Source: Lentilitoribacter sp. (GTDB lineage Bacteria > Pseudomonadota > Alphaproteobacteria > Rhizobiales > Rhizobiaceae). Taken from it: a stretch of DNA of 64,000 bases. This document shows positions 4,457 through 55,880 of the stretch, piece after piece. Numbering within the stretch: the stretch's first letter is position 1; each line of letters opens with the position of its first letter. The position numbers were made by a program, and so were the translations under genes. The notes under the pieces were generated by a model. That model was not told the origin of the DNA. It saw only the letters and a list, made by a program, of their open reading frames with translations, and made no database searches. Where the stretch lies: positions 795,254 through 859,253 of the forward strand of contig OY829371.1 of assembly GCA_963691785.1 (NCBI GenBank), in the 5' to 3' direction.

Positions 4457-5356
4457 TTAACTGTTGGTCTTTTCAGCCAATACAATATGTTCAATCGTAT
4501 TGAGTAATCTATCGATTAAAGTTGATTTCGAGCTGTTTTTGCGTGCCAGAATGCCTAAAATACGCCCCATAGACTGATCATCGCTTTGTGCATCCAACGG
4601 GATCTTGCGTAAGGTTTTAAAAATCGGATCTGGCACACACATATTGGGTGAGATTGAAACACCAAGATTATGTGAGATCATGCTGCTAAGCGTTTCAAGT
4701 GATTCCATTTCCATAGAAGGGCGCACAGAGATATTGTTCTTAATCAACCAATCTTCGGCCAAATGGCTGATTGAGGCGCGTCGTGACTGGCTAATATAGG
4801 GCATGGACTGCATGAGTTTAACCGGATCACTTTCTGTAACCTCAGGCGCTGTGAGCAAAACCAGCTCTTCTTCTACAAAGGGGCGCCAATCCATATGCGC
4901 GCCCACATGGGTGGGCATGGCAATCACCGCAGCGTCGATTGCGCCGCGTTCAAGTTGTTCATGCAGATCTTCAGATAGTCCCGGTACAACGCGAATATGC
5001 AGCTCTGGATAAGTTTCAATCAGTTTTTTGATCGACCGGGGGATCAGTTCCCGAATAACTGATGGCACGGCGCCAATGATCAGTTCACCATGTAATTGTG
5101 CAGTTCCGACAATATCATCAAGCATATTGTCATAGGCAAACACCACTTCTCGGGCTTTTGGGACCAATGCTTTGCCAAGCGCATTGAGTTGTGGCGACTT
5201 TTGCGATCGGTCAAACAATTCCACCTGCAGCTGATCTTCAAGCCGCTTCATCTGTTGCCCAACAGCGGCATGGGAGACATAAACTTTCTCTGCCGCAGCA
5301 CTGAAGCTTCCATGATCTGCAATGGCGATCAGAGTTTTTAAAAGTGAGATGGACAG
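4457..5356 (-). CDS. LysR family regulator; the HTH extends upstream of the tracked ORF and appears to start at CTG
   Basis: In-frame upstream translation (L/M)SISLLKTLIAIADHGSFSAAAEKVYVSHAAVGQQMKRLE is a complete LysR HTH. An in-frame TGA lies 4 codons above CTG 5356, and GAGGT is 6 nt upstream. Confidence 0.85.
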   Translation of the reverse strand: MSISLLKTLIAIADHGSFSAAAEKVYVSHAAVGQQMKRLEDQLQVELFDRSQKSPQLNALGKALVPKAREVVFAYDNMLDDIVGTAQLHGELIIGAVPSVIRELIPRSIKKLIETYPELHIRVVPGLSEDLHEQLERGAIDAAVIAMPTHVGAHMDWRPFVEEELVLLTAPEVTESDPVKLMQSMPYISQSRRASISHLAEDWLIKNNISVRPSMEMESLETLSSMISHNLGVSISPNMCVPDPIFKTLRKIPLDAQSDDQSMGRILGILARKNSSKSTLIDRLLNTIEHIVLAEKTNS

Positions 5357-7813: not shown

Positions 7814-8842
7814 CTAAAGATCAACGCGTCTGGCTTGTTCAGCCGATTGATAGGTGGCTTCGCTTGCTTTGATAACGGCTAGATAGTCATGGGCTTCGTT
7901 TTCAAACTCACCCTGACCATTAGCCGCCAATAAAATATGCTTGCAAAGCGCTTTCACGCAGCCACCACCAAAAGCGTTTCGATCCATTTCCAGCGAAATC
8001 GGAATAGTTTTTGAAACCAAAGAACCAAATGGTCGAAAGGTAATTTCACCCAATCCGTTTAGGTCTATCGTGCCTTTTTCGCCTTCGATCTGCATCACAC
8101 CCATGGTCCGGCGCAAATTATCTGTTGGGTGATCAGACAAGCGATTGCCATCAATAATGGACTGGCTGCCATTCTCATGGTTCATGATCACGATGCCACA
8201 ATCTTCTCCAGCGATCACCGGGTTTAGCTTTCGAATATCTGCATAGACGTTTTTAATCTCCCCAGACATCCAGCGAAAGAGATCAATGAAATGTACACCC
8301 GTCTCATGGATGAGCAGTCTCGGCATTTTTTGAAAAGCAGGTTGCCTTGAAAGATAAGCATCTGGTCCGCGGCCATCGCCTGGCCGTAAATAATATCTGG
8401 CCTGATAAATCTCACCCAAGCCACCATCATCAATGAAAGTTTTGATCGTGCGATACCATGGTTGGAAACGAAAGTTTTCGTGAATGAAAATTCGACATCC
8501 ACGTTCATTGGCAAGCGCAATCGCCTCTTCGGCTTGTTCAACGCTTAGACAAAACGGTTTTTGACAAATGATGATTTTATCTTTTGCTGCAAGCTTTTTA
8601 ATAAGATCAAAATGCGACGGAGGCGGTGTGACGATATCTATTATGTCTGGGTCGGATGCCACCACATCTGCCGCATCATCTGTTGCAATAAGACCGTATT
8701 TTTCGTTCGCCCAGGCGCGACGTTCTGCGGAAAAATCTGAAAGCGCGACAAGACGCGAACCTTTAAGTTCTGTCCAGGCATCTAAATGAAACTCGGCGAA
8801 ATAACCGAGGCCAACGACAGCGACTTTCAATTCACCACTCAT
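7814..8842 (-). CDS. Gfo/Idh/MocA family oxidoreductase
   Basis: GLGYFA Rossmann motif, CQKPF, HENFRF, ETGVHFIDL. Confidence 0.88.
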   Translation of the reverse strand: MSGELKVAVVGLGYFAEFHLDAWTELKGSRLVALSDFSAERRAWANEKYGLIATDDAADVVASDPDIIDIVTPPPSHFDLIKKLAAKDKIIICQKPFCLSVEQAEEAIALANERGCRIFIHENFRFQPWYRTIKTFIDDGGLGEIYQARYYLRPGDGRGPDAYLSRQPAFQKMPRLLIHETGVHFIDLFRWMSGEIKNVYADIRKLNPVIAGEDCGIVIMNHENGSQSIIDGNRLSDHPTDNLRRTMGVMQIEGEKGTIDLNGLGEITFRPFGSLVSKTIPISLEMDRNAFGGGCVKALCKHILLAANGQGEFENEAHDYLAVIKASEATYQSAEQARRVDL

Positions 8843-9942
8843 TTTAGCGCACCAATTTGTGCAAGCACTTCGTTCGTCATCGCCTTTGTGCCCATATCAC
8901 CACCAAATTCAAATGGGCGCAGGCGATTTTGTGCGAAACCATTATCGACGGCTTGATCGATGAGTTCTCCCGCTTTTGCAAATGCTTCGTTGCCGGATTT
9001 GTCCGCTAGATAATCAAGCATCAACGCGCCACTTAAAATGGCTGCAAGTGGATTGGCTTTATCTTGACCCATAATATCTGGCGCACTGCCATGCGCTGGT
9101 TGGAAAAGGCCAATCTCATCGCCAATTTCTGCACAAGATGCCATGCCCATGCCGCCAACCAAACCGCCGGCAAGGTCGGATAGAATATCGCCAAAGATGT
9201 TTTCCATCACCATGACATCAAATTCCCACGGCTTGCGAACAAGGTCCAATGCTTGGGCATCGACATAATTATAAGATGTTTCAACGTCCGGATTATCACC
9301 TTTGATCTCATCAAAAATCTGGCGGAAAAAGGCCATGGATTTGAATACATTGGCTTTATCTACACATGTAAGTCGCCCTAATTTCCCGCGCGCTTTACGA
9401 CGTCGAGCAAGATTAAAGGCAAATTTGTGCAAACGTTCTGTGGTATTTCGCGATACGAGCAGGCTGTCATAAACCTCTTCGTTTTCGACTATTTTGCTGC
9501 GATTATGCACGGCAGCTGAATAAAACAATCCTTCCGTGCTCTCGCGCAAGATGATCATGTCGACACCCGCAGCTCTTGGATCTGCAAGACGCTGCGGCGC
9601 GTTTGGATAGGCCTTAATTGGCCGAACACCAGCATATAGTCCATATCGATCACGCAATCTCAGGTGAGGGGAGATTTCCGTACCATCAGGATGTCGAATG
9701 GAGGGCAGCCCGATTGCACCCAAAAAAATCGCGTCAGATTCCCCTGCCTTTTCTTCGCCGCCTGGTTCGATATCAACGCCATGGTCTTTATAATAGCCCG
9801 CACCAGCTGCAATATCATTATAGTCCAGCGCACAATCGCCCACTTGCGCCATGGCTTGTTCAACAACTTGCAGCGTTGCCTCGGTGACATCAATTCCAAT
9901 TCCATCGCCGCGAATGACTGCAACGCTCTGTTTTAACGACAT
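8839..9942 (-). CDS. isocitrate/isopropylmalate/tartrate (beta-decarboxylating) dehydrogenase family
   Basis: GDGIGIDV, LRESTEGL, DKANVF, ENIFGDILSDL, HGSAPDI, NPLAAILS. Confidence 0.88.
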   Translation of the reverse strand: MSLKQSVAVIRGDGIGIDVTEATLQVVEQAMAQVGDCALDYNDIAAGAGYYKDHGVDIEPGGEEKAGESDAIFLGAIGLPSIRHPDGTEISPHLRLRDRYGLYAGVRPIKAYPNAPQRLADPRAAGVDMIILRESTEGLFYSAAVHNRSKIVENEEVYDSLLVSRNTTERLHKFAFNLARRRKARGKLGRLTCVDKANVFKSMAFFRQIFDEIKGDNPDVETSYNYVDAQALDLVRKPWEFDVMVMENIFGDILSDLAGGLVGGMGMASCAEIGDEIGLFQPAHGSAPDIMGQDKANPLAAILSGALMLDYLADKSGNEAFAKAGELIDQAVDNGFAQNRLRPFEFGGDMGTKAMTNEVLAQIGALK

Positions 9943-12632: not shown

Positions 12633-12709
<77 letters not shown>

Positions 12710-12905: not shown

Positions 12906-14234
12906 ATGATTCTGTCTGAGGAAGAGAAGAAAGAACTTCCCTACACGGTGTTTCGTCGTGGAGACAGTGGATCATATGGCTTGCGGTTTACGCTTGTTGA
13001 TAAGGATGGAAAGACAACACCTCAGTTTCGAATTGGCCTAGGAAAATGCAGTGAAGAAGAAGCCTATGCCAAAGCGGCAAAGGAATATGAACGTGCTGCT
13101 ATACGCAATGAAGAAGGACTATCTGTTGGTCCTGCTCGGTTCCATAAAGTCGCGCAGAGCTATGTGAGGCAGCTTTTATCTGAAGGTAAGAGCAGCAAAC
13201 GTAAATATGGTCATGCTCGTCATGCACAAGGTTGTGTCGAAAGATATTTCATTCCCTTTTTCAAACAATCATCTATCGGTGCAATCGGTCCTGCCAAGAT
13301 CAAAGAATATATGGAATGGCGAAAGTCCTATTGGATTACAGGGCCAGGTAAAGACATTGATGAAGAAGAACATGTCCGAGGCGAAAGCAAGGTTAGAATG
13401 CGCTTTCAAAAGATTGTTCCATCTGATGCCACATTGAAACGAGAAGCAAACTTTCTCAGAGGTGTGTTTAATCATGCCGTTGATAAAAACTATATTAAAG
13501 AAAGCGATGTTCCAAAGATCAGCTTTGGCAATGTCCAAACCAACAGACGCCCAGCTTTGACGAAAGAAGAATACAAAAGCTTGGAGCAAGTTGCCATTCA
13601 ACGATATATGGATGCCTGTAACTCAGAGATAACAGCCATCAACAAGAAAGAACGCCAGCAGCAGCTCGCCACGAAAGACAAGCTCATCTTCGAACGCAAG
13701 CAGATGGTTGAGTTCATCTATATTGCTGTCCAAACAGGAATGAGACCCGGAGAACTCTTCAATCTCAATTGGGGCCATATTGACGGATTAGATACCGCAC
13801 CCCTTGATGAGTTTGGTGACAGAAACATTCGCATCTTTGCCCATGGTAAAAACAAGAAGGGCAACCTCATTCCAGCAGCCCATACATCCAACGCGTTCCT
13901 CCAACTGAAAGAAGCTTACAAAACCCGCTTTGGCACCTATCCCAAAGATGAAGACCCCGTCTTTTGCGACGCAGTAGGCAACAGGCTAGTCTCACTCAAC
14001 AAACCACTTAATCAGCTGCTCAAAGCAGCAGGACTTCTTCATAATTCAGCAGGTGAGAAAATCTCCACCTATTGCTTCCGACACACCTATGCCACTTGGC
14101 AGCTTCAAAAGTCAGATGCAGTTGATATCTACACCCTCGCCATCAACATGCGCACATCTGTTGAGATGATTGAAAACTACTATTCAAAGCTCATTGCCAG
14201 TCTACATCAAAATCTATGCAAACAGGTAGTATAG
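12906..14234 (+). CDS. int: tyrosine recombinase / phage-type integrase
   Basis: QTGMRPGEL (catalytic Arg), HGK, YCFRHTYAT, MRTSVEMIENYY (Tyr nucleophile); N-terminal arm-binding-like domain. Confidence 0.93.
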   Translation: MILSEEEKKELPYTVFRRGDSGSYGLRFTLVDKDGKTTPQFRIGLGKCSEEEAYAKAAKEYERAAIRNEEGLSVGPARFHKVAQSYVRQLLSEGKSSKRKYGHARHAQGCVERYFIPFFKQSSIGAIGPAKIKEYMEWRKSYWITGPGKDIDEEEHVRGESKVRMRFQKIVPSDATLKREANFLRGVFNHAVDKNYIKESDVPKISFGNVQTNRRPALTKEEYKSLEQVAIQRYMDACNSEITAINKKERQQQLATKDKLIFERKQMVEFIYIAVQTGMRPGELFNLNWGHIDGLDTAPLDEFGDRNIRIFAHGKNKKGNLIPAAHTSNAFLQLKEAYKTRFGTYPKDEDPVFCDAVGNRLVSLNKPLNQLLKAAGLLHNSAGEKISTYCFRHTYATWQLQKSDAVDIYTLAINMRTSVEMIENYYSKLIASLHQNLCKQVV

Positions 14235-14527: not shown

Positions 14528-16372
14528 TTATGAAATATCGTTCGGTTCGATTTGCGTATGTGAGTAGACAGTGTTCCTTGATACTCCCAATTTTCTTGCC
14601 GTTAACGCAATATTGGATTTGCATTCAGCAAAAACTCGATTGATTTCACGACACTTAGCTTCTTTCGCGCTATTCCCTTTGCAACGTGGACAAACTACAG
14701 TACGCAATTCCTGACCAGGAATATAGCGATGGACATGTTCAGCCCGTAAAATTGTAGCCGGGCAGTGTATGATTAAAGTAGTAAGTAACTTTTCCAAATC
14801 GTAGAAGTTGCTCAGCTTATGATTATCGAAGATGACATCTATTGCAGAACGGGATAATTGGTGATTTGCCGAAAGGCGAGACATTATTGAAACTGCTATT
14901 AATGCGGCATCCGTGCGCTCACTCAGTGCAGGGAGTTGAAACTCTTGCTGGCGTAACTTGGTGAAGGTCATGGAGACAAATTTAGACCAATGTTCTTGTT
15001 CTTTGGGCGGCTCATTTTCTGTGACGATGATCGACCATTTTGCCGAAGACTTGTGCTGCAACATTCGATTTACTAGCTGAGCTAATTGCTCCGAAGCATA
15101 TCCGGTCGCTTCTGACAGGTCTTCCAATACCAGAACACCACCCGATTCGATTGTAAATTTATCGCTTACGGTGTCACTGAAAAATTCGCCCGTCAATTCC
15201 TGACTGTCGGAGTTTAAGTTCGCAACCCTGCAATCCACAGCGATCAAAGGTTTTTCGGGACAAGTTGCCTGGTGCACAGCTTGTACAAATGTCGTACGTC
15301 CAGTTCCGGATGGGCCTATAACATATTGCGGCGTCATCATCTTAGCGGATCGAATTGCCAGCTTTAAACTGTTTCGAACTTGTTCGTCTCGGAACACTGG
15401 TGAGCTCGGAAGATTTGGAACTTCGTAAGTTGGCGGAAGGTTCAATGTCAAATTTTGTGAGTTTCGATTTGACGAAATCCTTGAAATGCGGAGCCGAGCA
15501 AAAAATGCAGAATTTAACCAGTCAACAAGTCGGACACTCTCTCCTCCACGCATAGCAGACAAATTCGAGTTGAAATCGGTCCTGAAGAGATCACTGAACT
15601 TGGTTAGGTTCGAAAAGTCCAATCCGTTCAAAAGTTGAGCGGCTCGACGGTTAGCGCCAAGGATCAAGCCTTGTTCATTGAAGCTAATCATACCAACGCT
15701 CTGTGTTTTCAAATACTCCTGTCGGGGATGAAATTGAATGATTATATTTGACCTATGATCCTCTACAAATAGACGGTTTTCTATGTTGGAAGCTGCCAGT
15801 TCAACCAATGCTTGGGTATGAAATTGACGCGCTGCGACCTCTGATGAAGCGTCAAGTAGGCCCACAATCTCGCCTTGACTGTTAAAGATTGGTGAGGACA
15901 CGCAAGAAACTTTACCGTGGGAAGAAAAATAGTGTTCAGGCCCCGTAACCATACTGGTGCGGCCGGTGTAAAGCGCAAGACCAAGCGCATTAGTACCACG
16001 ATGCTCTTCATCCCAGATGGTCCCGCAGCGAACCGCACGAGCACATTTAGACAAGCTAAATTCTGTATCCATAATTGCATCGAGCACAACACCGCGGTTG
16101 TCTGCAAATGCCGTCATATAGTTTGTACCGGCTATCTGGGTGCTCAATAGTTCGAGTTCTGGGCGTACCACACGTAGCAAAGCCTCATGTTTCTGACGAG
16201 TTTCGCGAAGGGCGGCCAATCCAATATCTGCATCCAGCGGTTTCCCGACTGGATCCAATCCGTGCCGTAAACATCTGTGCCAACTATCTGCAATATGCTC
16301 TGGAACAGCTCCTGGAGCAAAACGGCCTTTTGTTTCGAGCGCAGAGCGCGCTTTCATGAACATTGATTGCAC
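14528..16372 (-). CDS. GAF-domain (AcoR-like) Fis-HTH activator with a degenerate AAA+ domain
   Basis: SWHRC...GLDP, WDEEHRGTNALG GAF motifs and TARKLGVSRNTVY HTH. Walker A reads GPSGTGRT, Walker B reads LVLEDL, and there is no GAFTGA. GTG start with GGAGG RBS. Confidence 0.85.
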   Translation of the reverse strand: MQSMFMKARSALETKGRFAPGAVPEHIADSWHRCLRHGLDPVGKPLDADIGLAALRETRQKHEALLRVVRPELELLSTQIAGTNYMTAFADNRGVVLDAIMDTEFSLSKCARAVRCGTIWDEEHRGTNALGLALYTGRTSMVTGPEHYFSSHGKVSCVSSPIFNSQGEIVGLLDASSEVAARQFHTQALVELAASNIENRLFVEDHRSNIIIQFHPRQEYLKTQSVGMISFNEQGLILGANRRAAQLLNGLDFSNLTKFSDLFRTDFNSNLSAMRGGESVRLVDWLNSAFFARLRISRISSNRNSQNLTLNLPPTYEVPNLPSSPVFRDEQVRNSLKLAIRSAKMMTPQYVIGPSGTGRTTFVQAVHQATCPEKPLIAVDCRVANLNSDSQELTGEFFSDTVSDKFTIESGGVLVLEDLSEATGYASEQLAQLVNRMLQHKSSAKWSIIVTENEPPKEQEHWSKFVSMTFTKLRQQEFQLPALSERTDAALIAVSIMSRLSANHQLSRSAIDVIFDNHKLSNFYDLEKLLTTLIIHCPATILRAEHVHRYIPGQELRTVVCPRCKGNSAKEAKCREINRVFAECKSNIALTARKLGVSRNTVYSHTQIEPNDIS

Positions 16373-24935: not shown

Positions 24936-25301
24936 ATAAACGAGCGCCGTACTGATGATGCAGATCGTGTAGTTAAGGATATACGGCGACAAACACGACG
25001 CAAATATTCCTCAGAAGATAAGATACGGATTGTATTAGCTGGCCTTCGTGGTGAAGACAGCATTGCGGAATTGTGTCGACAAGTGGGTATAGCCCAGAGC
25101 CAATATTATTCATGGTCCAAGGGGTTTCTGGAAGCTGGTAAGAAGCGATTGGCTGGTGACACCGCCAGAGAGGCAAATACTGGTGAGGTAAAGAACCTTC
25201 GCAAAGAGGCTCGTGATTTAAAGGAAGTGGTTGTTGAGCAGGCTCTGGAATTGCGCTTACTCAAAAAAAGCATGTACGAAGATGGGGGAGACGACGAATG
25301 A
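24936..25301 (+). CDS. IS3 OrfA (HTH); no canonical start codon found in frame
   Basis: ...DADRVVKDIRRQTRRKYSSEDKIRIVLAGLRGEDSIAELCR...LRLLKKS; the position where Met is expected reads ATA (24936). Confidence 0.7.
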   Translation: MNERRTDDADRVVKDIRRQTRRKYSSEDKIRIVLAGLRGEDSIAELCRQVGIAQSQYYSWSKGFLEAGKKRLAGDTAREANTGEVKNLRKEARDLKEVVVEQALELRLLKKSMYEDGGDDE

Positions 25302-26278
25302 GGTACCCCGCATCTGAAAAGCTTGAGATCATTAAGTTGGTTGAACAATCACATCTGTCTGCCAAGCAAACACTGGAAAAGCTGGGTATTCCACGATCCA
25401 CTTTTTACCGCTGGTATGATTTGTATCAAACTGGCGGCGTGGATGCTTTGGAAGATAAAGCCCCAATGCCAGCACGGGTATGGAACCGTATCCCTGATGA
25501 TATCCGTGAGCAAATTGTTGATTTAGCACTGAATGAGCCAGAGCTTTCGCCTCGTGAGCTGGCGGTCAGATTTACAGATCAACAGCAATACTTCGTGTCA
25601 GAAGCCAGCGTTTACAGGCTGCTTAAATCACATGACCTGATCACCAGCCCAGCATATATTGTTATGAAGGCTGCTGACGAGTTCCGTGATAAGACAACAG
25701 CACCCAATCAGCTTTGGCAAACAGACTTCACGTACCTCAAAATCATCGGCTGGGGTTGGTTCTATCTATCAACGGTGCTGGATGATTATTCCAGATATAT
25801 CATCGCTCATAAGTTCACACCGACCATGGCAACCAAGGATGTGACAGATACATTGGATTTAGCTTTGCAGGCTTCTGGCCGCGATCAAACAAAGGTCATT
25901 CACAAGCCACGACTTCTCTCAGATAACGGGCCTAGTTATGTCTCGACAGAGTTGGCAGAATATCTTGATGCCAATGGCATGGCTCACACCAGAGGTGCAC
26001 CATATCACCCTCAGACACAGGGCAAGATTGAGCGTTGGCACCAAACGCTGAAGAACCGCATCCTGTTAGAAAATTACTTCATACCTGGTGATCTAGAACG
26101 ACAAATCGAGGCTTTCATCGAACATTATAATTACAATCGGTATCATGAAAGTTTCAGCAATCTAACGCCTGCAGATGTTTACTTCGGGCGAGGAAAACAA
26201 ATCTTACAACAAAGAGAAAGGATCAAACAAAAGACTATTGAACAGCGACGCTTGCAAAACAAAAGACAAGCCGCATAA
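25298..26278 (+). CDS. IS3 OrfB DDE transposase
   Basis: WQTDFTY, LSDNGPSY, QGKIERWH (D-D-E). Confidence 0.93.
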   Translation: MRYPASEKLEIIKLVEQSHLSAKQTLEKLGIPRSTFYRWYDLYQTGGVDALEDKAPMPARVWNRIPDDIREQIVDLALNEPELSPRELAVRFTDQQQYFVSEASVYRLLKSHDLITSPAYIVMKAADEFRDKTTAPNQLWQTDFTYLKIIGWGWFYLSTVLDDYSRYIIAHKFTPTMATKDVTDTLDLALQASGRDQTKVIHKPRLLSDNGPSYVSTELAEYLDANGMAHTRGAPYHPQTQGKIERWHQTLKNRILLENYFIPGDLERQIEAFIEHYNYNRYHESFSNLTPADVYFGRGKQILQQRERIKQKTIEQRRLQNKRQAA

Positions 26279-27758: not shown

Positions 27759-29060
27759 TTACCCACCAGACTTATGCACCACAAGCTGTAATTGGTCTCC
27801 GATCGATTGTGACGTCGGTCCATTATAAAGATCAAAAGGCAGCTCTAGATATGTCCAGGTTTCGATCAATGCAGATGTTAAAGCCTGAATGTGGTCTTCT
27901 GTGTGCAATGGTGATGGTGTGATGCGCAGGCGCTCGGTTCCACGCGGCACAGTCGGATAATTGATGGGTTGGATATAGATATTATGGACCTGCATCAGCC
28001 TGTCAGAGGCTTGTTTGCATAGATCCGCATCCCCAACCCAGAGCGGGATAATATGCGTGTCAGACGGCATAAGCGGCAGCTCAGCGTCGTGGAGCGCCTG
28101 TTTTGTTTGTAACACGCGCAATTGCTGCTGCTCGCGCTCGAACGAAGAAGATTTTAAATGCTGAATGGAAGCAATTGCTGCACTGGCGATCGCAGGTGGC
28201 AAGGCTTTTGTGAAAATAAAACCCGGCGCATAGGACCGTACACAGTCAATGATATTTTTTGACCCTGCGATGTACCCACCTAACACTCCAAAGGCTTTTG
28301 CAAGTGTTCCCTCAATAATATCGATGCGATGCGCGAGGCCTTCGCGCTCAGTGATGCCTCCACCATGATCACCATACATGCCCACAGCGTGAACTTCATC
28401 AATATAGGTAATGGCGTTGTATTGATCTGCAAGATCGGCAATGTCCTTGATCGGGGCTACATCACCATCCATGGAATAGACGGATTCAAAGGCAATGATT
28501 TTGGGTCTGTCTAAGTCTTCTGCTGCCAAAATTTTTTCAAGATGTTCCAGATCGTTGTGGCGGAAGATTTTCTTAGCGCAACCTGACTGGCGTATCCCTT
28601 CAATCATGGAAGCATGATTAAACTCATCGGAGATGATTAAACAATTGGGTAGCAACTTTGGCAGTGTGGAAAGTGTCGCCTGGTTAGAAACAAATCCGGA
28701 TGTGAATACCAGGGCAGCTTCCTTGTTGTGAAGATCAGCGAGTTCCTTTTCAAGCGCTACAATTGGATGTGATGTGCCTGAAATATTCCGTGTACCGCCT
28801 GCTCCGGTGCCGATGCTAGACGCAGAATTTGACATTGCCTTTATCACATTTTCATGCTGCCCCATACCGAGATAATCGTTCGAACACCAAATCGTGACTT
28901 CTTTTGCTGTATCTTTGCCATTGTCTTTGGTGTCATCGTGCGTGCGATAAATGGCTTTTGGAAACGAACCAACAATCCGCTCCAGATCTGCGAAAACACG
29001 ATAGCGATTTTCATCACGGAGTTGATCAATTGCATTTTCAAAATAATGCTGATGTTTCAT
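27759..29060 (-). CDS. hemA: 5-aminolevulinate synthase (C4 pathway)
   Basis: [55 protein letters not shown]. Confidence 0.95.
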
Positions 29061-29130
29061 AGAATTTGATCCTTAGATTGTTAGTTTGTACTCACGTTTC
29101 CAAAAGCAGTTTTGGGCGAAAGGAGAGGGA

Positions 29131-29580
29131 TCACCCAAAAATTTTGGAAAAGAAGCCCTTTTTTGGAGGTTCTACAGTCGCGGCTGCGCTTTTCATAGCA
29201 CCAGCAACCAGTCCATATGTTTCAAGCCAGGCGTCTTTAACGTCAGGCGTGAATTCCTCGCCCAAACCCTTGTCGAGTGTGTAAATCAGCGCTTCACCAA
29301 CTGTGTCATAATGCTCGTCTTTAACGCCATATCCGACATGCTTTTTCGCCAGGTCCTGAATGGTCGGCAGGATTGTTTCCACCTGGTGCAAATTATTCAC
29401 GGCAACACCCAAAGTCTGCATCAATTTTGTTTTTTGATCTTTCATTTCCGCCGGAAACATAGAGCGTACGGAAGGCGCGATTTCAAACAGGCGGTCGTAA
29501 AAAATATCGGCAGCAGTTTCCGCAATGGGTTCAACTTTTGAAAAACTACCTTGAACCAGTTTAATTTGTTCTGGGGTCAT
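29131..29580 (-). CDS. single-domain (flavohaemoglobin-type) globin
   Basis: FYDRLFEIAP (TyrB10), DQKTKL (GlnE7), KKHVGYGV (HisF8), HYDTVGEAL; C-terminal KKGFFSKIFG. Confidence 0.92.
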   Translation of the reverse strand: MTPEQIKLVQGSFSKVEPIAETAADIFYDRLFEIAPSVRSMFPAEMKDQKTKLMQTLGVAVNNLHQVETILPTIQDLAKKHVGYGVKDEHYDTVGEALIYTLDKGLGEEFTPDVKDAWLETYGLVAGAMKSAAATVEPPKKGFFSKIFG

Positions 29581-29599
29581 TGATTTTCCTTTCTATTAA

Positions 29600-30064
29600 T
29601 CAATTTAAGTTTTGTGTGGCTGCCTCCTGGCCCCCACTGTGGTAGATCATGAAGCGAACGGCGGATTCCACTTCAATATCGGTTAGCTCATCATTGCCGC
29701 CGCGTGCGGGCATATTGCCGCCAGATGGGCTTAAGAAACCGTTTTGAGCATTGGCCACGAGAACCTCCAATCCCTTTTCAATTCGTGGTGCCCAAAATTT
29801 GGATCCAGTAATTTTCGGGGCGCCGAAATTTCCGGTTCCATGACAAATTTTGCAATTTTGATCCCAAACCTGCGCCCCTTCTTCAATAAGGGTGAATTCG
29901 GTTTTGGGGAGACGCTCGATTTTAACGAGGCGTTTTAATCCACGCTCTGGATAAGGCGGATATTCCACCTTAATTTCATCAGCGATGGTTCCATGGGTGA
30001 GCAAAAACCCACCCATGACAAAGACACCGCCAACAAATTTTTGAAATTTTGTCAGCTGTTTCAT
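29600..30064 (-). CDS. cytochrome c5-family monohaem protein
   Basis: Signal peptide, CKICH, GAPK, W..RIEKG, NMPARGG (axial Met); start MKQLT at 30064. Confidence 0.88.
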   Translation of the reverse strand: MKQLTKFQKFVGGVFVMGGFLLTHGTIADEIKVEYPPYPERGLKRLVKIERLPKTEFTLIEEGAQVWDQNCKICHGTGNFGAPKITGSKFWAPRIEKGLEVLVANAQNGFLSPSGGNMPARGGNDELTDIEVESAVRFMIYHSGGQEAATQNLN

Positions 30065-30068
30065 GGTG

Positions 30069-30638
30069 TTAGCCTTCCAATGGAATTCGGATAACAACGC
30101 CACCCATAACATCGCCAACTTTAAAGTCAGTCCGCGGGCTGTCTTTATGCTCGTTGTGACAAGTTGCGCAAACCTCAGCAACAGCCACATCGGCATAAAC
30201 GGCAGTGAAATATTTCAGATCATCAATGACTTCTTCACCGTAGAAATTTTCGCCAATATTATCGGCAACAAATTTCAAACCTTCTTTTTCAAGCTCGGTT
30301 TGGTTTTCCGCATTTGGCTTGTTAATCGGCCAAAGTGACTGCAAAGAATATTCAAAAAGGTCGGTGCGATCAGCCACAGCTTCTGCACCCATGCGGAACA
30401 TTTGAGCAGGGAGTGGTGCTGAAATATCATCTTCAAAATTCTCAGTCGCCTTGATCAATTTATGTTCAGCGACCAGACGGCCAACGATCATTTTCGTGTA
30501 GATTGTGCGGTCAGAATCCATCACTGCATGCAGCATGTCGGTGACGTCTGCGGGGTCAATGCCGTCGGCATTTGTTGTCGAAACTGGTATGGCGGCAAGC
30601 AGGGCGCCTGCAACCAGCATATTGATTATTTTCGACAT
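30069..30638 (-). CDS. secreted DUF3365 (Tll0287-like) haem c protein
   Basis: Signal peptide, PLPAQMFR, SLWPINKPN, CATCH, FKVGDVMGGVVIRIP. Confidence 0.8.
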   Translation of the reverse strand: MSKIINMLVAGALLAAIPVSTTNADGIDPADVTDMLHAVMDSDRTIYTKMIVGRLVAEHKLIKATENFEDDISAPLPAQMFRMGAEAVADRTDLFEYSLQSLWPINKPNAENQTELEKEGLKFVADNIGENFYGEEVIDDLKYFTAVYADVAVAEVCATCHNEHKDSPRTDFKVGDVMGGVVIRIPLEG

Positions 30639-30677
30639 GAGTATTATCTCCTTTGTGTTGCTTAAACGTGCAATAAA

Positions 30678-30722
30678 GCGAGGGATAGGATTTAGTGGGC
30701 CTAATCACGTCCTATTCCTCGC
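30678..30722 (-). other. intra-operon hairpin at the end of the multihaem gene
   Basis: GCGAGG-GATAGGA...TCCTATT-CCTCGC inverted repeat; weak U-tract on the minus strand. Confidence 0.45.
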
Positions 30723-32283
30723 GTCTCAATGCCCAATCGATGCTTTCAATATGCTTCGATGGACGCCCATTGAAATTATTTTCAACGAGTTCTGGGTCTG
30801 CCAGGGCATCAATGGAAAATCCTAACCCATGACATGACATACAAACCGGCCGGATCATTTTTTCGTTTGGCCGTAAAAAGTCGTTTTGATTGTGCGAAGT
30901 GAAGAAGCTGTCGCCAGCTTTAATTTTTGGCATATGGCAATCTGCGCAACTCACACCTGATCCTGGGGCGCCATCACCTGCAAGTTCCAACTGCCAAAGT
31001 TCAAAATGCCGCGAGTTAAAATAATTCTGCGTATGCGCATCATTATGACACGATGTGCAAGCTTCCACGGCAGCCACTTCAAGCTTGACGTCATGTGGTT
31101 TATGGCAGGTGTTGCAATTGCCAATTTCCATGTCATGCACATCCGGCTTCATCAAATCTTTGCGCGATGTTTGCCCCACGCTTGTGGGTCCCAATGGCGT
31201 ATCTTTGAACACATGCACCGCGACAGACATTGGGCCGTCAGCCTCAACGGTACGTGGCTTGGCGATCTCTGGGTGAAAACGCATACCATGCTTGCCCATT
31301 GTAAAGGTCTTGGCTTGGTTTTCATGGCAATCAGAACAAACGGCAAGCCCCGGTTTTTCGATCCAATTTTCTTCTAAAAGAACCAGATCAGTCATGTCTT
31401 TATAGTCTGGCGCGTGACAAGCCGCACAATTCAAACCGGCGCCAGCATGCGCTGATGTTTCCCATGCGGTGATAGCTTCCTCATCATGATATTGTTCGGG
31501 TGCGATCACATCTTTTGCATATAGAACAAGATCGAGCATCTCTTTCGCTTTCGCGCGATTATCAGGTTTTACCCCATCTTGCTCGGCGTTTTGGGTGTCG
31601 CGATCGTTCAAATATGATTCAAGTGCGGTGATCGGATCATCTTCGACCAAGGCGGTGCGGATGATCGGCGGTGTACGGCTCATTGCGGCAAATTCTTGAA
31701 TGGCATCGGGGAGAAAATCTTCACCATGGCCATGCTTGACTAAAAACGCTTCATAAAGCGCGGTATTGTCATGGTAGTTGTGGCAGCCAGCAGAGGCGCA
31801 TGTTGTAAACTCCAACCCGGCATGGCTTTCGCGTTCTTCACCAATTTTCGTGTGGCATGCAACGCAAAGATCCTGCGGCAAAGACACAGCCATGGGTCGG
31901 GTAATTTCCGGCACGTGTTCGGCATGGCAAGTTTGGCAGTAAAATGCATTTAATTGCGCACGTGTTTTGGCTTTTTTGGCACCTCTGAATTTTTTAGTCG
32001 GGTGGGAATCGTTTGCTGCGCTGAGCTCTTCAAGATGGCAGGTGCCGCATGCCTTGGTCATAGCCGCTGCAAGTTTTTTCGGGCTCTTAGTCAGATTGTC
32101 GATAAGCCCGGTTGTGTGGCAGCTTTCGCATGCCAGCTCAATTTGCCCGTGGGCTGCTGTTGTTTTCCCAATCAATAAAAGATGCCGTGGGCCACCAACA
32201 AAAACAACACCCATTATGATCATAATGCCCATGAGCGATAAGATGGTCCATAAAACCCAGAGCATATGATTTCGTTTAATCAA
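30712..32283 (-). CDS. membrane-anchored 11-haem cytochrome c
   Basis: Ten CxxCH (CESCH, CGTCH, CQTCH, CVACH, CAACH, CSDCH, CNTCH, CTSCH, CADCH, CMSCH) plus one CX4CH (CASAGCH); N-terminal TM; probable TTG start at 32283. Confidence 0.92.
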   Translation of the reverse strand: MIKRNHMLWVLWTILSLMGIMIIMGVVFVGGPRHLLLIGKTTAAHGQIELACESCHTTGLIDNLTKSPKKLAAAMTKACGTCHLEELSAANDSHPTKKFRGAKKAKTRAQLNAFYCQTCHAEHVPEITRPMAVSLPQDLCVACHTKIGEERESHAGLEFTTCASAGCHNYHDNTALYEAFLVKHGHGEDFLPDAIQEFAAMSRTPPIIRTALVEDDPITALESYLNDRDTQNAEQDGVKPDNRAKAKEMLDLVLYAKDVIAPEQYHDEEAITAWETSAHAGAGLNCAACHAPDYKDMTDLVLLEENWIEKPGLAVCSDCHENQAKTFTMGKHGMRFHPEIAKPRTVEADGPMSVAVHVFKDTPLGPTSVGQTSRKDLMKPDVHDMEIGNCNTCHKPHDVKLEVAAVEACTSCHNDAHTQNYFNSRHFELWQLELAGDGAPGSGVSCADCHMPKIKAGDSFFTSHNQNDFLRPNEKMIRPVCMSCHGLGFSIDALADPELVENNFNGRPSKHIESIDWALRREE

Positions 32284-32293
32284 ATCCCGTCCC

Positions 32294-34303
32294 CTAATAC
32301 ATATAAACAACGAGAACATGGATCGCGATCAGTACCGGCAAAGGCCATACCGCGATGATGTGTACCCACATTGGAAAGGTGCGCGGCTTGGCATTATTGG
32401 CGCTGAAACCACGCTCCTTTAATTCGTGTTCACCTCCTGTGATGAGACCAGCGATCGCGCCAAAAATGAGCGTAATGACGAAACTTAGCATCAAGAGGAG
32501 ATTAAAATTGCTGCCAAGTCGAAATCCGGTGTGCCAGACCAGGACGAGAGCGGCAGCAAAACCAATGATTAAATGTATAAGGCGCCAGGCTTGGTAACTG
32601 CCCAATTTGGATAAAAAACCAATTCGCTTTCGAAGCCCAATAATAGCCGCCGCGACAGATAGGCCGAGTAAGGTGTAGCCTGAATATTGCTTCCATATGG
32701 TGTCAAACCAAAGATCAAACCAAAAATCGTCCACGATGTAAGTGTCGGCCATGCCGATCCGTGGAAGCAACAAAGTAGCAAGGGCAGCCAAAGCACCAAG
32801 ACCGGATATGATGAGAAGCGCCTTCCACCATTTCACAGGTTCGGGTTTCATATCTCCTTGACCCAAAAGCTCATTGATCAATGGTCCGCAAGAGCCGCAA
32901 ACACTGTTGGCGCTTGTGGCTGAGCGGACATCATCGAGATTGGAAGCACCCAAGGTTATCGCATCGGAAATCGCGCCTTTCGTCACGCCAGTGCAATTGC
33001 AGATAATCGCTTCTTTGGGCCAGGTGGCAACGCTGTCATCTGCACCTTTCCACAATTGTCCAGAGCGTTGGAACGACCATATCTGCCAGGGCCAAACTGA
33101 AATTTTATCTCCAACGGCTTGCTGTAATTTTGTCGCTTCGGGCCAATCTCCGACACCTAAAGCTGCGACTAATTTTCCGCGCGAGACCAAAAGCCGACGA
33201 TAAACATCTGTCTCAATATCTCGATAGGTATAGCTTTTTATCCCGGGTTGTTGTTCGATGGATTCAAAATCGCCAATCGAGAACACATCAGCGCCGACCA
33301 CTTTTAATTTCGTGGTTGGTGTTGAACCTAAATAGATATTGCTCTCATCACCATTGATATCGGCAACAGCAATGTTTGTTTGCTCATAGCCCGGTCCAAC
33401 CAAGCCATAGACATGTTCATTGTGTTCAGCGCATTCACCGATCGCGTAAATATCGGGATCGGATGTGCACATTTGGTCATTGACGATGACACCGCGATTA
33501 TGCGCCAAACCAATCGCGGCAGGCAGCTGTGTATTGGCGCGAACGCCAGTACAAACAATCACAGTATCGGCTTTGATGGTATCACCATTTCCAAGTGTAA
33601 TAATTTCTGCGCGGGTATCGCCGTCAATTGATTGGACACGTTGGTTTACAACGACATCAATACCAATAGCCTCAATGCGGTCTTTTAATGTATTGCCAGC
33701 CGCTAAATCGAGTTGTCTTGGCATCAAACGATTTTCGTGTTCGACGACAGTGACCTTTGCGCCACGTTTGGCCATGCCTCTGGCAGCCTCGAGGCCAAGC
33801 AGTCCTCCGCCGATAACAACAACATTCCGGGCCGACATGGATCGGGCAATTAGAGCCTCGACATCATCAAAATTTCGGAACGAAAAAACACCTGATAGCT
33901 TCGAACCCTCAATATTGGGAATGAAGGCACGAGACCCAAGCGCGAAAATCAGTTTTGAATAGAAATATGTTCGACCGTTTGACGCTAGAACCTGCTTATT
34001 CTCTCGATCGATATCGATCGCCGACACACCATCATAACGATTGATTTTCCCTGGGCGAGGCGCATATTCGCTGGCATATATTTGCCCAAGCTGCGTCTCG
34101 CCGGCGAGAAGTGGGGTCAGTTTCACACGATTATAAGGACGCCAGCGTTCGGCATTTAACAGAATGACGTGGAACCCACTCCGCGACAATTCCTGCGCAG
34201 CACGCGTTCCTATAGGACCGCCACCGATAATAACGATGACGTTCTGATTGGCGACCGCAGTTTCGGCTTCTTCATCGAAGCCAATTTTCGTCGAGACATT
34301 CAT
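32294..34303 (-). CDS. NirB-N-terminus-like NAD(P)H/FAD oxidoreductase + BFD-like [2Fe-2S] + C-terminal di-haem b membrane domain fusion
   Basis: IIGGGPIG (FAD), VIGGGLLGLE (NAD), CNC...CGSC, then about 5 TM segments with two H-x13-H motifs; no sirohaem/4Fe-4S domain. Confidence 0.88.
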   Translation of the reverse strand: MNVSTKIGFDEEAETAVANQNVIVIIGGGPIGTRAAQELSRSGFHVILLNAERWRPYNRVKLTPLLAGETQLGQIYASEYAPRPGKINRYDGVSAIDIDRENKQVLASNGRTYFYSKLIFALGSRAFIPNIEGSKLSGVFSFRNFDDVEALIARSMSARNVVVIGGGLLGLEAARGMAKRGAKVTVVEHENRLMPRQLDLAAGNTLKDRIEAIGIDVVVNQRVQSIDGDTRAEIITLGNGDTIKADTVIVCTGVRANTQLPAAIGLAHNRGVIVNDQMCTSDPDIYAIGECAEHNEHVYGLVGPGYEQTNIAVADINGDESNIYLGSTPTTKLKVVGADVFSIGDFESIEQQPGIKSYTYRDIETDVYRRLLVSRGKLVAALGVGDWPEATKLQQAVGDKISVWPWQIWSFQRSGQLWKGADDSVATWPKEAIICNCTGVTKGAISDAITLGASNLDDVRSATSANSVCGSCGPLINELLGQGDMKPEPVKWWKALLIISGLGALAALATLLLPRIGMADTYIVDDFWFDLWFDTIWKQYSGYTLLGLSVAAAIIGLRKRIGFLSKLGSYQAWRLIHLIIGFAAALVLVWHTGFRLGSNFNLLLMLSFVITLIFGAIAGLITGGEHELKERGFSANNAKPRTFPMWVHIIAVWPLPVLIAIHVLVVYMY

Positions 34304-34328
34304 AAATTAACTCGCAAGAAATGTCGTC

Positions 34329-34379
34329 AAAAGAAAAAACGCCATATACGCAAATGTGATCACATTTGCGTATATGGCG
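34329..34379 (-). terminator. leader attenuator terminator
   Basis: Perfect 40-bp palindrome 34340-34379 followed on the minus strand by UUUUUUCUUUU, 37 nt before the ATG. Confidence 0.88.
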
Positions 34380-34407
34380 CCATTGCCCGAATGCCCTTCA
34401 TTGGGCA
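34376..34407 (-). promoter_or_regulatory. ANTAR dual-hexaloop antiterminator RNA motif
   Basis: P1 UGCCC-AAUGAA-GGGCA and P2 GGC-AAUGGC-GCC; both loops have A1/G4 and C-G closing pairs; P2 overlaps the terminator 5' arm. Confidence 0.85.
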
Positions 34408-34417
34408 GAACAAACTA

Positions 34418-34434
34418 TGCAAGTAGTGTGCCAA
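34418..34434 (-). promoter_or_regulatory. sigma-54 (-24/-12) promoter
   Basis: Minus strand TTGGCACACTACTTGCA matches TGGCAC-N5-TTGCW with correct GG-N10-GC spacing, just upstream of the ANTAR motif. Confidence 0.9.
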
Positions 34435-34516
34435 ACGAATTAAAGTAATAAAAACAATACAATCAAAGATTTTCTCAGAATGTAAATACAGGCTGAAAGT
34501 TTAAATTTTAGGGCTT

Positions 34517-34533
34517 TGCTCAATGTATGTGCA
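34517..34533. promoter_or_regulatory. NtrC-like enhancer site
   Basis: TGCTC-N7-GTGCA (one mismatch to TGCAC-N7-GTGCA) about 100 bp upstream of the sigma-54 promoter; adjacent TGCAC half-site at 34535. Confidence 0.65.
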
Positions 34534-34794
34534 GTGCACAATTTTAATCATCTTGGCAGATGAAAGTGATATGTTCAAATTAATGGCGCTGAACATAAAA
34601 GGCCTTTGTATTTGGACACCGATGAACTACGGGATAGATCAAACGTTAGGAAAATATTGCTCTAAATCGGTTTGGCTCACAAGATCTGGACCGCGCAGTT
34701 CGGACCAGATTAGCCTTACCGGTAATCAAAGTTAGAGCATTGTTTGCCCATAAGAATTGAGCTTACGAAAAGTGACTAAATTTAAATCGGTTCT

Positions 34795-35721
34795 TTAAAG
34801 CTCATGTGACCATGGCGGATTTGCACCGGATCTGGATACAGTTACAGCCGCCACTTTTGAGGCAAATTCCATGGCTTGTTTAAGCGGTTTTTCATCTATG
34901 TTTTTCAACGCGGACTTGGATAATAGATCCAGTTCTGAAAGCTTAGCCAATAGACCGCCATTAAAGCTGTCGCCAGCGCCAACAGTATCGGCAACAACAA
35001 CTTTATTAATCGCAATATCAATCGAGCTACCATCGCCATAATAGCCAGTGGAACCGTCTTCGCCTTTTGTCAGCACCACTAAGGACACGCCAAATTGAAG
35101 TAACTGATTGGCGGCTGCTTCAAGTGAAGCAGCATCCGGATAGATCCATTTGAGATCTTCATCCGAAATTTTTACAATATCACAAATGCCAAAGAGCTTT
35201 TCCAAGCGTTTGCGGTATTTGGTTTCGTCTGAAATGAAAGTCGTCCGTATATTCGGATCAAGCATGACCACAGAATTTGCTGACACTTTTTCAGCCAGTG
35301 CTGCATAACTCTCACCAGATGGTTCGCTTGCTAGGCTTATACCACCGAAGTAATAGGCCGCAATTGCTTCATCATTTGCGTGAAAATCATCAAATTGAAC
35401 CATCCGGCCGGCAGAGTTTTCGTCAAAGAAAGAATAGGACGCGTGTCCATCTTTCAGCTCAACAAAAGCCAGCGTCGTTGGGCGCTCGCTTTTCACCAAC
35501 TGAGATGTGTTGACATTGCTGGCAATTAGATCTCGTTCAAGCTGCTGCCCAAACATATCTTTGGATACGCCAGAGACCAAGGATACGTCTGCCCCCAGTC
35601 TCCCAAGCGTGATTGCGGTGTTAAAGATGGCCCCACCGGAATGGGGCACAAACGCTGTCTGGTCATCATCAATGCCAATAGCAATCATGTCGACCAGAGC
35701 TTCGCCACAGCAGATGATCAT
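34795..35721 (-). CDS. PfkB-family carbohydrate kinase (fructokinase-like)
   Basis: CGEALVD, GGAIFN, LDPNIR, DTVGAGDSF. Confidence 0.9.
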   Translation of the reverse strand: MIICCGEALVDMIAIGIDDDQTAFVPHSGGAIFNTAITLGRLGADVSLVSGVSKDMFGQQLERDLIASNVNTSQLVKSERPTTLAFVELKDGHASYSFFDENSAGRMVQFDDFHANDEAIAAYYFGGISLASEPSGESYAALAEKVSANSVVMLDPNIRTTFISDETKYRKRLEKLFGICDIVKISDEDLKWIYPDAASLEAAANQLLQFGVSLVVLTKGEDGSTGYYGDGSSIDIAINKVVVADTVGAGDSFNGGLLAKLSELDLLSKSALKNIDEKPLKQAMEFASKVAAVTVSRSGANPPWSHEL

Positions 35722-54771: not shown

Positions 54772-54939
54772 TTACGTTAGATATTTGAGCGCGATCCAAA
54801 GACCGATCGTGCCCCAAAAACACATATTGATGAAAGAGCGCATCACACCGCCATCTTCTTCAATGCTGACGCCTAAACGGTCAAGAACGAGTGTTCCGGG
54901 CATTAAAAATACTTTGAGCACGAGATTGAGTAATGTCAT
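54772..54939 (-). CDS. small membrane protein (55 aa) translationally coupled to the truncated haemoglobin
   Basis: ATGA overlap with the trHb stop; MTLLNLVLKVFLMPG...FINMCFWGTIGLWIALKYLT. Confidence 0.65.
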   Translation of the reverse strand: MTLLNLVLKVFLMPGTLVLDRLGVSIEEDGGVMRSFINMCFWGTIGLWIALKYLT

Positions 54940-55379
54940 TTTCGAGTTCCTTTCAGAGATGTCCATTCCGGGTGAGACTGAAATGGATCTTTGTTTCGAG
55001 CGAGCCAAAGGCTTGAGGCGATCCGCATGGCTGTGGTTTTCACATGCAATGCTGTCGTCTCGTCAAAGAGTTGATTGGCCGTTTCGCTGAAGAGTTCCAG
55101 CCATTGCATGAAGTCTTCGGTATGTAATCCTTCAATCTGATTATGTTTGGGAACAGGCTGTCCTTTATATTCGCCTGTTTTGAGCAAAACTGATCGCCAA
55201 AAAGCTTTCATTTTTTCAAGATGCGGTTCCCAATTGCCATCAATCACCTGTTCAAAAATTGGTCCGAGTTGCGGATCCCTGCGCACACTTTTGTAAAATT
55301 CATCAACGAGCTGAGAAATTTGATCATGGGTGATTGACAGATTGCTCGCGGCACGGATTTGGGTTGGATTGTCTAACAT
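54936..55379 (-). CDS. group III truncated haemoglobin
   Basis: LVDEFY...DPQLGPIF, HLEKMKAFW, PVPKH, F..WLELF. Confidence 0.9.
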   Translation of the reverse strand: MLDNPTQIRAASNLSITHDQISQLVDEFYKSVRRDPQLGPIFEQVIDGNWEPHLEKMKAFWRSVLLKTGEYKGQPVPKHNQIEGLHTEDFMQWLELFSETANQLFDETTALHVKTTAMRIASSLWLARNKDPFQSHPEWTSLKGTRK

Positions 55380-55478: not shown

Positions 55479-55880
55479 ATGCGCCTTAATCAAGCGAGTG
55501 ATTTTGCATTGAGAATTTTAATGCTTTTAGCGGATCAAAAAGACCCTCTGACGGTCGACGAAATCTCAACACGGCTTGATATTGCAAAATCCCATGCCAT
55601 GAAAATCGTCGCAAAGCTGGTTAAGGCCGAGATCCTTTTATCTCTGAGAGGCCGCACGGGTGGCGTGTTGTTGGGCAAGCCAACTCAAGACATCATTATC
55701 GGCGATGTTGTGCGCATCGTCGAAGCAGATTTTGCCATTGTCGAATGCATGCAACCGGGCAATCAGGCGTGTATGTTCCTGCCCAGCTGCAAGTTGAAAG
55801 GCGTCATGCATCAAGCGCGAACCGCATTTTTAAAAGTGCTGGATGCGCAAAATCTCGACATGATTGTTTCAAGACCCTAG
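55479..55880 (+). CDS. Rrf2 family regulator, NsrR-like
   Basis: SDFALR, RGRTGG wing, three Cys (C-x7-C-x5-C). Confidence 0.85.
   Translation: MRLNQASDFALRILMLLADQKDPLTVDEISTRLDIAKSHAMKIVAKLVKAEILLSLRGRTGGVLLGKPTQDIIIGDVVRIVEADFAIVECMQPGNQACMFLPSCKLKGVMHQARTAFLKVLDAQNLDMIVSRP

Follow-up and report, generated by a model that had tools for sequence, protein, structure and literature searches.

The RNA targets of ANTAR proteins are dual hexaloops, that is, two hairpins (P1 and P2) with an A at the first and a G at the fourth loop position (A1/G4), of which P2 overlaps a terminator (PMC8934654). For the ANTAR protein EutV, a 20-nt extension of the linker abolishes action, which points to a spatial constraint (PMC8934654). 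In Klebsiella oxytoca/pneumoniae, expression of nasF combines NtrC and a sigma-54 promoter with antitermination by NasR (Lin & Stewart 1996, Chai & Stewart 1998/1999, as summarized in PMC10783516). Similarly, NtrBC/RpoN and NasT both act on the Pseudomonas nirBD leader (PMC10783516), and NasT of Bradyrhizobium controls operons beyond assimilation, namely nos and nap (PMC6759348, PMC4724949). Here, we describe a leader of this type in a 64,000-nt stretch of Lentilitoribacter sp. DNA (contig OY829371.1, positions 795,254 to 859,253), which is referred to as the window. It is probably a two-signal nitrogen-control leader, in which initiation is governed by sigma-54 and NtrC and read-through by NasT antitermination. 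The operon that it controls differs from the standard nas and nirBD operons, a point that an earlier, sequence-only reading of the same DNA had passed over.

The leader is located on the minus strand in a 490-bp intergenic gap, which is bordered on one side by a pfkB-type kinase gene (ending at 34795) and on the other by the ATG (34303) of a gene for a 669-residue protein. P1, the 4-nt linker, P2, the 40-bp palindrome and the U-tract, all of which had been proposed in the sequence-only reading, are present on this strand at the positions given in Table 1. The leader thus has the attributes of an ANTAR target: two adjoining hexaloop hairpins, A1 and G4 in both loops, a short linker, and an overlap of P2 with the terminator. 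The terminator itself is of the rho-independent kind, with a stable G+C-based stem followed by a U-tract; a terminator scan flagged the hairpin with 20 pairs, 8 of them G-C, and the tail TTTTTTCTTTT. Folding of the 121-nt leader gave a z-score of -5.1 compared to shuffled sequences.

P2 and the terminator are mutually exclusive, as had been claimed. The palindrome starts at the final base of the P2 loop and therefore overlaps the 3' arm of P2. In the minimum-energy fold, the terminator stem even reaches loop positions 4-6, such that the 3' half of the P2 loop and the 3' arm double as the base of the terminator stem. If P2 is forced, a residual hairpin of 14 bp remains, which ends 4 nt short of the U-tract. 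Intrinsic terminators whose stem does not abut the U-tract do not terminate. With -2.8 kcal/mol, P2 cannot win unaided against the terminator (-30.7 kcal/mol), a behaviour that characterizes antiterminators dependent on a protein. The same use of the 3' half of the P2 loop and the 3' arm as the 5' arm of a terminator was found in eight other folded leaders, which belong to the loci L081, L084, L092, L001, L051, L075, L018, and L067. The overlap is less clear in the fold of L083, and folding of the leaders of L085, L086, and L087 revealed no clear terminator. Between the lineages that show the overlap, the terminator sequences are unrelated.

The leader resembles several described systems in its architecture and differs from each of them in regulator, signal or cargo. 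The Enterococcus faecalis eut leaders recognized by EutV (PMC8934654) likewise possess two hexaloops with A1 and G4, a short linker, and a P2 embedded in the terminator. In contrast, they are served by the EutW/EutV two-component system, respond to ethanolamine, have a different type of promoter, and belong to a different phylum. Klebsiella nasF shares the combination of a nitrogen-limitation signal at a sigma-54 promoter with a nitrate/nitrite signal at a leader terminator, which is relieved by a hexaloop-binding ANTAR protein. However, its regulator is the NIT-ANTAR protein NasR and its cargo is nasFEDCBA, whereas the Lentilitoribacter leader is likely served by NasT/NasS in trans and precedes genes for haem proteins. 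In the nirBD leader NalA of Pseudomonas putida, which is controlled by NasT-NasS, an A1/G4 dual hexaloop is needed for NasT-dependent read-through, and NtrBC/RpoN control is superimposed (PMC10783516). The NasST systems of Azotobacter, Paracoccus, and Bradyrhizobium (PMC6759348, PMC4724949) were compared as one group with that of Pseudomonas putida; their targets are characterized operons for nitrate/nitrite or N-oxide reductases, unlike the operon considered here.

For a comparative analysis, loci of orthologous operons were retrieved, the encoded proteins of which are 92% to ~45% identical to those of the window. The matches listed in a scan of genome contigs were generic NirB genes and contained no close orthologue (best 43%); these loci were reused as canonical nas comparators. 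A scan of metagenomes with the membrane domain of the 669-residue protein as query yielded only seven loci, and an exact database look-up of this protein found no record. The operon-family leaders of eight lineages align as P1-linker-P2. Their stems differ by compensatory changes, both in P1 (UGCCC/GGGCA, GUCC/GGGC, CGCCC/GGGCG, GUAUCC/GGAUGC, GCGACC/GGUCGC) and in P2 (GGC/GCC, GAC/GUC, CGC/GUG, GGGC/GCUC); a P2 stem of the form UGC/GCA also occurs outside the window. In an alignment of 19 sequences, 93.8% of the cells are paired compared to at most 62% in slid controls, and double changes occur in six of the nine pairs; none of 500 shuffles matched these values. Because this alignment was fitted to a covariance model, the pairing figures are somewhat flattered. 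Across the 19 leaders, A2 and G4 of the loops are invariant. Position 1 is an A in every P2 and an A or a G in P1. The linker also comprises 4 nt in rhizobial leaders that are adjacent to nasT-nasS.

Three covariance models were used to search for related leaders. Model R1 was trained on operon-family leaders only and was applied to 1.58 Mb of fetched loci. It has a single match in the window. All of its significant matches outside the training set are located on the coding strand of nitrate-assimilation loci from Rhizobium, Mesorhizobium, Sinorhizobium, Aquamicrobium, Hyphomicrobium, and Magnetovibrio. There, the matches lie just 3' of a REC-ANTAR gene that is usually followed by an NMT1-type gene, i.e. 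of a nasT-nasS pair. For model R3, the window and its close relatives were excluded from training and the search was run with filters off. The window leader nevertheless ranked first with 24.3 bits (E 0.0014), the runner-up reaching 11.6 bits, and the leaders of L100, L098, and L081 were recovered as well. A search of Rfam returned nothing at gathering scores; below the threshold, only spurious matches to long hairpins (miRNA) were seen. The assignment of the two hairpins as an ANTAR-type dual hexaloop, which the sequence-only reading had made from one sequence, is thus corroborated by covariation, by the kept loop identities, and by the cross-detection of nasT-nasS leaders.

The rhizobial clusters with the order nasT-nasS-leader-narK/nirB, which were found by means of the model derived from the leaders of this operon, have a 6-bp P1 stem and a P2 of the form GGC[AAAGCC]GCC. 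An example is Rhizobium lusitanum (L051), where nasT and nasS are followed by a sigma-54 promoter, the dual hexaloop, the terminator, a gene for a transporter of the major facilitator superfamily, and nirB. In its leader (L051:8500-8660), a sigma-54 promoter, a dual hexaloop with a 4-nt linker, and a terminator formed with the P2 loop and 3' arm are arranged as in the window. The rhizobial clusters differ in having the regulator genes in cis, directly upstream of the leader, in the loop sequence (AAAGCY versus AAUGGC), and in the distance between promoter and P1, which is 30-40 nt compared to approximately 0 nt in the window. On the evidence of these comparisons, the window leader is best regarded as an antitermination leader of the NasT/NasR class of ANTAR targets behind a sigma-54 promoter, and the original interpretation is essentially right.

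Several variants of the leader were observed among the loci. The nitrate-assimilation cluster of Mesorhizobium temperatum (L039) contains two near-identical NasT-type leaders (4854-4893 and 8338-8377), each with its own sigma-54 promoter. In L083, an additional hairpin UGCCC[AAACAAA]GGGCA (9790-9815) is located upstream of the sigma-54 promoter. The region 9800-9960 of L086 (Actibacterium) has three CGGGCAA(C/U)G repeats and a 15-nt linker, and shows no clear terminator or sigma-54 promoter. This arrangement may represent a variant mechanism, for example translational control. In the leader of L087, the P1-type loops begin with a G (GAUGAA, GAUGCC) and a third hairpin, CCGC[AAAGCC]GUGG, follows.

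Several findings weigh against interpreting the leader as an NtrC- and NasT-dependent switch. A profile of 30 NasT homologues, which was run at maximum sensitivity against the six-frame translation of the window, detected no ANTAR gene in these 64 kb (best E 2.5). This result agrees with the sequence-only reading, and the regulator must therefore act in trans. Model R2, the training set of which consisted of ten near-identical canonical leaders from rhizobia, missed the window leader (6.1 bits, E 8). As R2 recovered the leaders of L084, L085, and L001 at the correct position, we read its failure on the window as over-specialization, yet count it as a failed test. Moreover, not every member of the operon family has the leader. 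With 11 detections among about 21 operon-family loci with upstream sequence, it is common; it was not detected upstream of the operon in L094, L096, L088, L089, L002, and in distant planctomycete and verrucomicrobial homologues. Inspection by eye revealed variant hairpins in L002, L088, L089, and L095, whereas L094, L096, and the distant homologues showed none. A transcription start on the first base of P1, as predicted, would give a P1 stem of 4 or 5 bp. Finally, generic dual hexaloops with A..G.. loops occur in the window at chance level (12 observed, approximately 10 expected), and the NtrC-like dyad, with a single clear site, does not exceed its chance expectation when the window is considered alone.

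The latter two points are part of a more general result, which is that the elements of the leader are individually weak and do not exceed chance expectation. Dual hexaloops with AA.G.. loops were observed once (1.1 expected), and NtrC-like dyads with at most one mismatch twice (3.4 expected from shuffles). The exact sigma-54 consensus has a sole match in the window, compared to an expectation of 0.21, and at least one match was found in 17 of 100 shuffles. The combination of a dual hexaloop with an overlapping terminator was observed once, with 0.065 expected. The significance of the leader therefore results from the co-occurrence of all parts in the proper order on one strand of a single 5' untranslated region, combined with the fact that other genomes conserve them.

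Given that dual hexaloops of the loose form arise about once per window by chance, the two loops might be coincidental. The sigma-54 promoter would then simply precede an attenuator that acts constitutively or a terminator that serves as insulation, or else the palindrome, which is unusually long and perfect, might act as DNA, for example as a cruciform or an operator. We consider this explanation very improbable. Both the covariation of the hairpins and the identities of their loops are maintained between lineages that have wholly different terminator sequences, and the model derived from the operon-family leaders cross-detects leaders linked to nasT-nasS. Besides, if nothing relieved a terminator that separates an operon from its own promoter, the six conserved genes would be silenced. 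The DNA-level variant, which the sequence-only reading had raised by remarking that the palindrome could extrude as a cruciform, does not survive the comparison with close relatives. In L100, the nearest relative (its multihaem protein is 92% identical), the terminator stem differs at four pair positions by two double compensatory changes and two changes to G.U pairs. The symmetry of the DNA is lost, whereas 20 of 20 RNA pairs are kept, which argues for selection on the RNA hairpin. The terminator stems of L098 and L081 contain a mismatch and wobbles. In the window, the palindrome is unique and not a repeated element. A cruciform or protein-operator role was therefore rejected; judged from this alignment, the palindrome is a long terminator stem, and its perfect DNA symmetry is private to the window genome.

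Independent support for an ANTAR protein serving the operon family comes from the gene neighbourhoods of two loci. In L087, a nasS-nasT pair (407-2178; ANTAR assigned by Pfam) divergently adjoins the orthologous operon, and in L002 an ANTAR gene, likewise assigned by Pfam, ends approximately 640 nt upstream of it. The remaining operon loci that were inspected have unrelated neighbourhoods and no ANTAR gene within 10 kb. Since ANTAR proteins in general recognize this RNA motif (PMC8934654) and the regulator gene is not in the window, the partner of the leader might be a different ANTAR protein from NasT, either a NIT-ANTAR protein of the NasR type or an orphan, in which case the signal would not be nitrate or nitrite sensed by NasS. 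This is improbable, as the relatives are Alphaproteobacteria, in which the ANTAR genes next to nas leaders encode REC-ANTAR NasT proteins paired with NasS, and as the orthologous operon of L087 has such a pair alongside. NasT is thus the most likely partner of the window leader.

The sigma-54 promoter that had been predicted is an exact match to the consensus TGGCAC-N5-TTGCW, with the -24 GG and the -12 GC at the required spacing. Of 21 leaders, which include those of the operon family and of canonical nas operons, 16 have a sigma-54 match (9 or more of 11 bases) no farther than approximately 80 nt upstream of P1. The window also encodes an AcoR-like activator (14528-16372), which consists of a GAF, a sigma-54-interaction, and a helix-turn-helix domain and is located beside genes for short-chain and zinc dehydrogenases; the organism therefore uses sigma-54-dependent transcription. 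The standard spacing from the -12 element suggests that transcription starts with the first base of P1, at about 34407.

Sigma-54 promoters depend on an AAA+ activator, the enhancer site of which is expected about 80-150 bp upstream. Upstream of the promoter in the window, the NtrC-like dyad reads TGCAC-ATACATT-GAGCA on the minus strand (34533-34517). The position given for it in the sequence-only reading was correct; the spelling TGCTC-N7-GTGCA was the plus-strand reading of the same bases. NtrC sites of enteric bacteria follow the consensus TGCACC-N5-GGTGCA, and enhancers usually carry two or more of them. Over the ten outer bases, the window dyad has one mismatch to TGCAC-N7-GTGCA, and its position is kept in close relatives. 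Dyads with at most two mismatches, centred at -118 to -149, were found for 13 of 17 promoter-bearing leaders, those of canonical nas operons included; as many of these loci are related, the count overstates independence. The separate lineages with a positioned dyad are the window clade, L084, L092, L002, and the rhizobial clusters. The shared geometry of the dyad argues for a common activator of this operon and of canonical nas operons. No IHF consensus was found between enhancer and promoter, where the spacer is 74% A+T. Of the four regulatory layers named in the sequence-only reading, the promoter, the hexaloops, and the terminator have strong comparative support, whereas the assignment of the dyad as an NtrC site is plausible but not proven.

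The most strictly conserved upstream feature of the window clade is a different inverted repeat, TGTGC-N3-GCACA. Together with the lacking significance of the NtrC-like dyad in the window and with the haem proteins of the operon, whose globin resembles the globin domain of nitric oxide (NO)-inducible flavohaemoprotein, this might indicate that the same RNA switch is combined with another enhancer-binding protein, such as one of the NO-responsive NorR type. In that case, nitrosative stress together with nitrate, and not nitrogen limitation, would be what the operon responds to. We regard this alternative as unlikely. Dyads resembling TGCAC-N7-GTGCA are placed equally (-118 to -149) at the leaders linked to nasT-nasS, the activator of nas operons is NtrC (PMC10783516), and no NorR-like gene adjoins the operon in the loci inspected.

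Taking NtrC and NasT as the two regulators, the following mechanism is probable. Under nitrogen limitation, the sigma-54 promoter would be activated from a site about 118 nt upstream by an enhancer-binding protein, most likely NtrC, and transcription would begin at or beside the first base of P1. By default, the 20-bp hairpin abutting the U-tract would form, and transcription would stop approximately 30 nt before the ATG. The second signal would be delivered by an ANTAR protein whose gene lies at another place in the genome; the most likely candidate is NasT, which would be set free by NasS in the presence of nitrate or nitrite. This protein would bind both AANGNN hexaloops and keep the weak 3-bp helix of P2 closed. 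P2, held in this way, would occupy the G+C-rich foot of the terminator and leave the 14-bp hairpin at a distance of 4 nt from the U-tract. Due to this separation, RNA polymerase would read through into the six-gene operon.

The first gene of the operon encodes a flavoprotein that corresponds to NirB without its sirohaem half. In addition to the FAD/NAD(P)H part, it has a BFD-type [2Fe-2S] domain and a C-terminal membrane domain with at least four transmembrane segments and invariant histidines, for which no sequence relative was found in the PDB. The NCBIfam model of nirB matches residues 23-481 only, with a score of 392 compared to a cut-off of 578. The second gene encodes a multihaem cytochrome c with 11 haem motifs in total. 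Its start is uncertain, as the listed open reading frame overlaps gene 1 by 26 nt and homologues comprise 506-529 residues. The closest named relative of the protein (81%) is from a metagenome-assembled genome of Lentilitoribacter sp. Its similarity to octahaem or NrfA nitrite reductases is limited to about 65 residues at the C-terminus (E 1e-7 to TvNiR), and the NCBIfam score is 23 bits compared to a cut-off of 595. A Foldseek search of the PDB with an AlphaFold model (pLDDT 75.7) gave no significant match (best E 4.9). The public annotation of these parts of the operon as NirB or "nitrite reductase large subunit" and as NrfA or "cytochrome c552" thus fails both family cut-offs.

Two known identities of the cargo were considered and rejected. 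It is not a NirBD or nas operon, as NirB is represented by its N-terminal FAD/NAD and BFD part only, instead of a full-length protein with sirohaem/[4Fe-4S] domains, and no nirD or nasA follows. Gene 2 does not encode NrfA or an octahaem nitrite reductase, as it has no full-length similarity to these in sequence or fold. A partial functional parallel to the globin and the flavoprotein of the operon exists in Bradyrhizobium, where the NasT-linked globin Bjgb and flavoprotein Flp are co-expressed with NasC (PMC4724949, PMC6759348). A literature search found no paper on the operon. Its orthologues are many and belong mostly to Alphaproteobacteria; the block is also conserved in some Gamma- and Betaproteobacteria.

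Homology of the window to L081 at the nucleotide level is confined to positions 27904-34459. Promoter, leader, and the six genes therefore behave as one transferable module. The flanks of the module differ in L081/L098 and in L100, which is consistent with mobility, and an open reading frame for an IS3-type transposase (integrase core; 25298-26278) is located approximately 1.5 kb past its last gene. No compositional anomaly was detected in the window (46% G+C) on the basis of G+C content in 2-kb segments. Elsewhere, a tRNA gene (12633-12706, plus strand) is directly followed by a gene of the phage integrase family (12906-14234, plus strand), which may mark the boundary of an integrated element. 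A gene for an Rrf2-family regulator (55479-55880, plus strand) is divergent from a small globin-like open reading frame (54936-55379, minus strand) with a weak match to Protoglobin; the two could be an NO-responsive pair of the NsrR type.

Table 1. Positions of leader elements and operon genes in the window. Energies are given in kcal/mol.
Feature	Position	Strand	Description
Upstream activator-type element	34517..34540	-	TGTGC-N3-GCACA (34540-34528) overlapping NtrC-like dyad TGCAC-N7-GAGCA (34533-34517); centre at about -118 from the predicted start
Sigma-54 (-24/-12) promoter	34418..34433	-	TGGCAC-ACTAC-TTGCA; exact match to TGGCAC-N5-TTGCW
P1 hairpin	34392..34407	-	UGCCC[AAUGAA]GGGCA; hexaloop with A1 and G4; -7.7
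Linker between P1 and P2	34388..34391	-	UUCG, 4 nt; from the sequence
P2 hairpin	34376..34387	-	GGC[AAUGGC]GCC; hexaloop with A1 and G4; weak alone, -2.8
Terminator hairpin	34338..34381	-	20 pairs at most, made up of 18 Watson-Crick pairs from the palindrome and basal closing pairs; 4-nt loop GAUC; -30.7
Palindrome, 40 bp	34340-34379		perfect (20+20), without spacer; core of the terminator
U-tract	34329..34339	-	UUUUUUCUUUU (run TTTTTTCTTTT); abuts the terminator stem
Gene 1, NirB-like FAD/NAD(P)H flavoprotein	32294..34303	-	669 residues; Pfam, NCBIfam, transmembrane prediction, alignment
Gene 2, multihaem cytochrome c	30712..32319	-	10 CxxCH and 1 CxxxxCH; N-terminal transmembrane or signal segment
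Gene 3, Tll0287-like protein	30069..30638	-	one CxxCH; signal-like N-terminus
Gene 4, monohaem cytochrome c	29600..30064	-	listed open reading frame extends to 30196; internal ATG at 30064 is the probable start; homologues of 138-154 residues
Gene 5, single-domain globin	29131..29580	-	resembles the globin domain of flavohaemoprotein (Hmp)
Gene 6, 5-aminolevulinate synthase (ALAS)	27759..29060	-	TIGR01821, 639 bits, above cut-off; final gene of the conserved module

The regulatory architecture is textbook, as known from Klebsiella nasF and Pseudomonas nirBD and by now explained at the structural level (PMC8934654), and adds nothing new to ANTAR or sigma-54 biology; new is the cargo. The leader appears to place an uncharacterized, widespread operon, which occurs mainly in marine Alphaproteobacteria and includes ALAS in this clade, in the NtrC/NasT regulon for nitrogen limitation and nitrate/nitrite. 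The operon is also a clean example of a cargo that carries its own leader while relying on regulators encoded elsewhere. Tentatively, the module may handle assimilatory nitrite, hydroxylamine or NO by a new route based on haem c, in which electrons from NAD(P)H would pass via the fused flavoprotein domain across the membrane to a periplasmic multihaem reductase; together with its leader, it would pass from genome to genome and connect to the NasT/NtrC circuitry already present in the recipient. The leader can thus serve as a functional label, which links the operon to nitrogen limitation and nitrate/nitrite and provides a testable hypothesis for its role.

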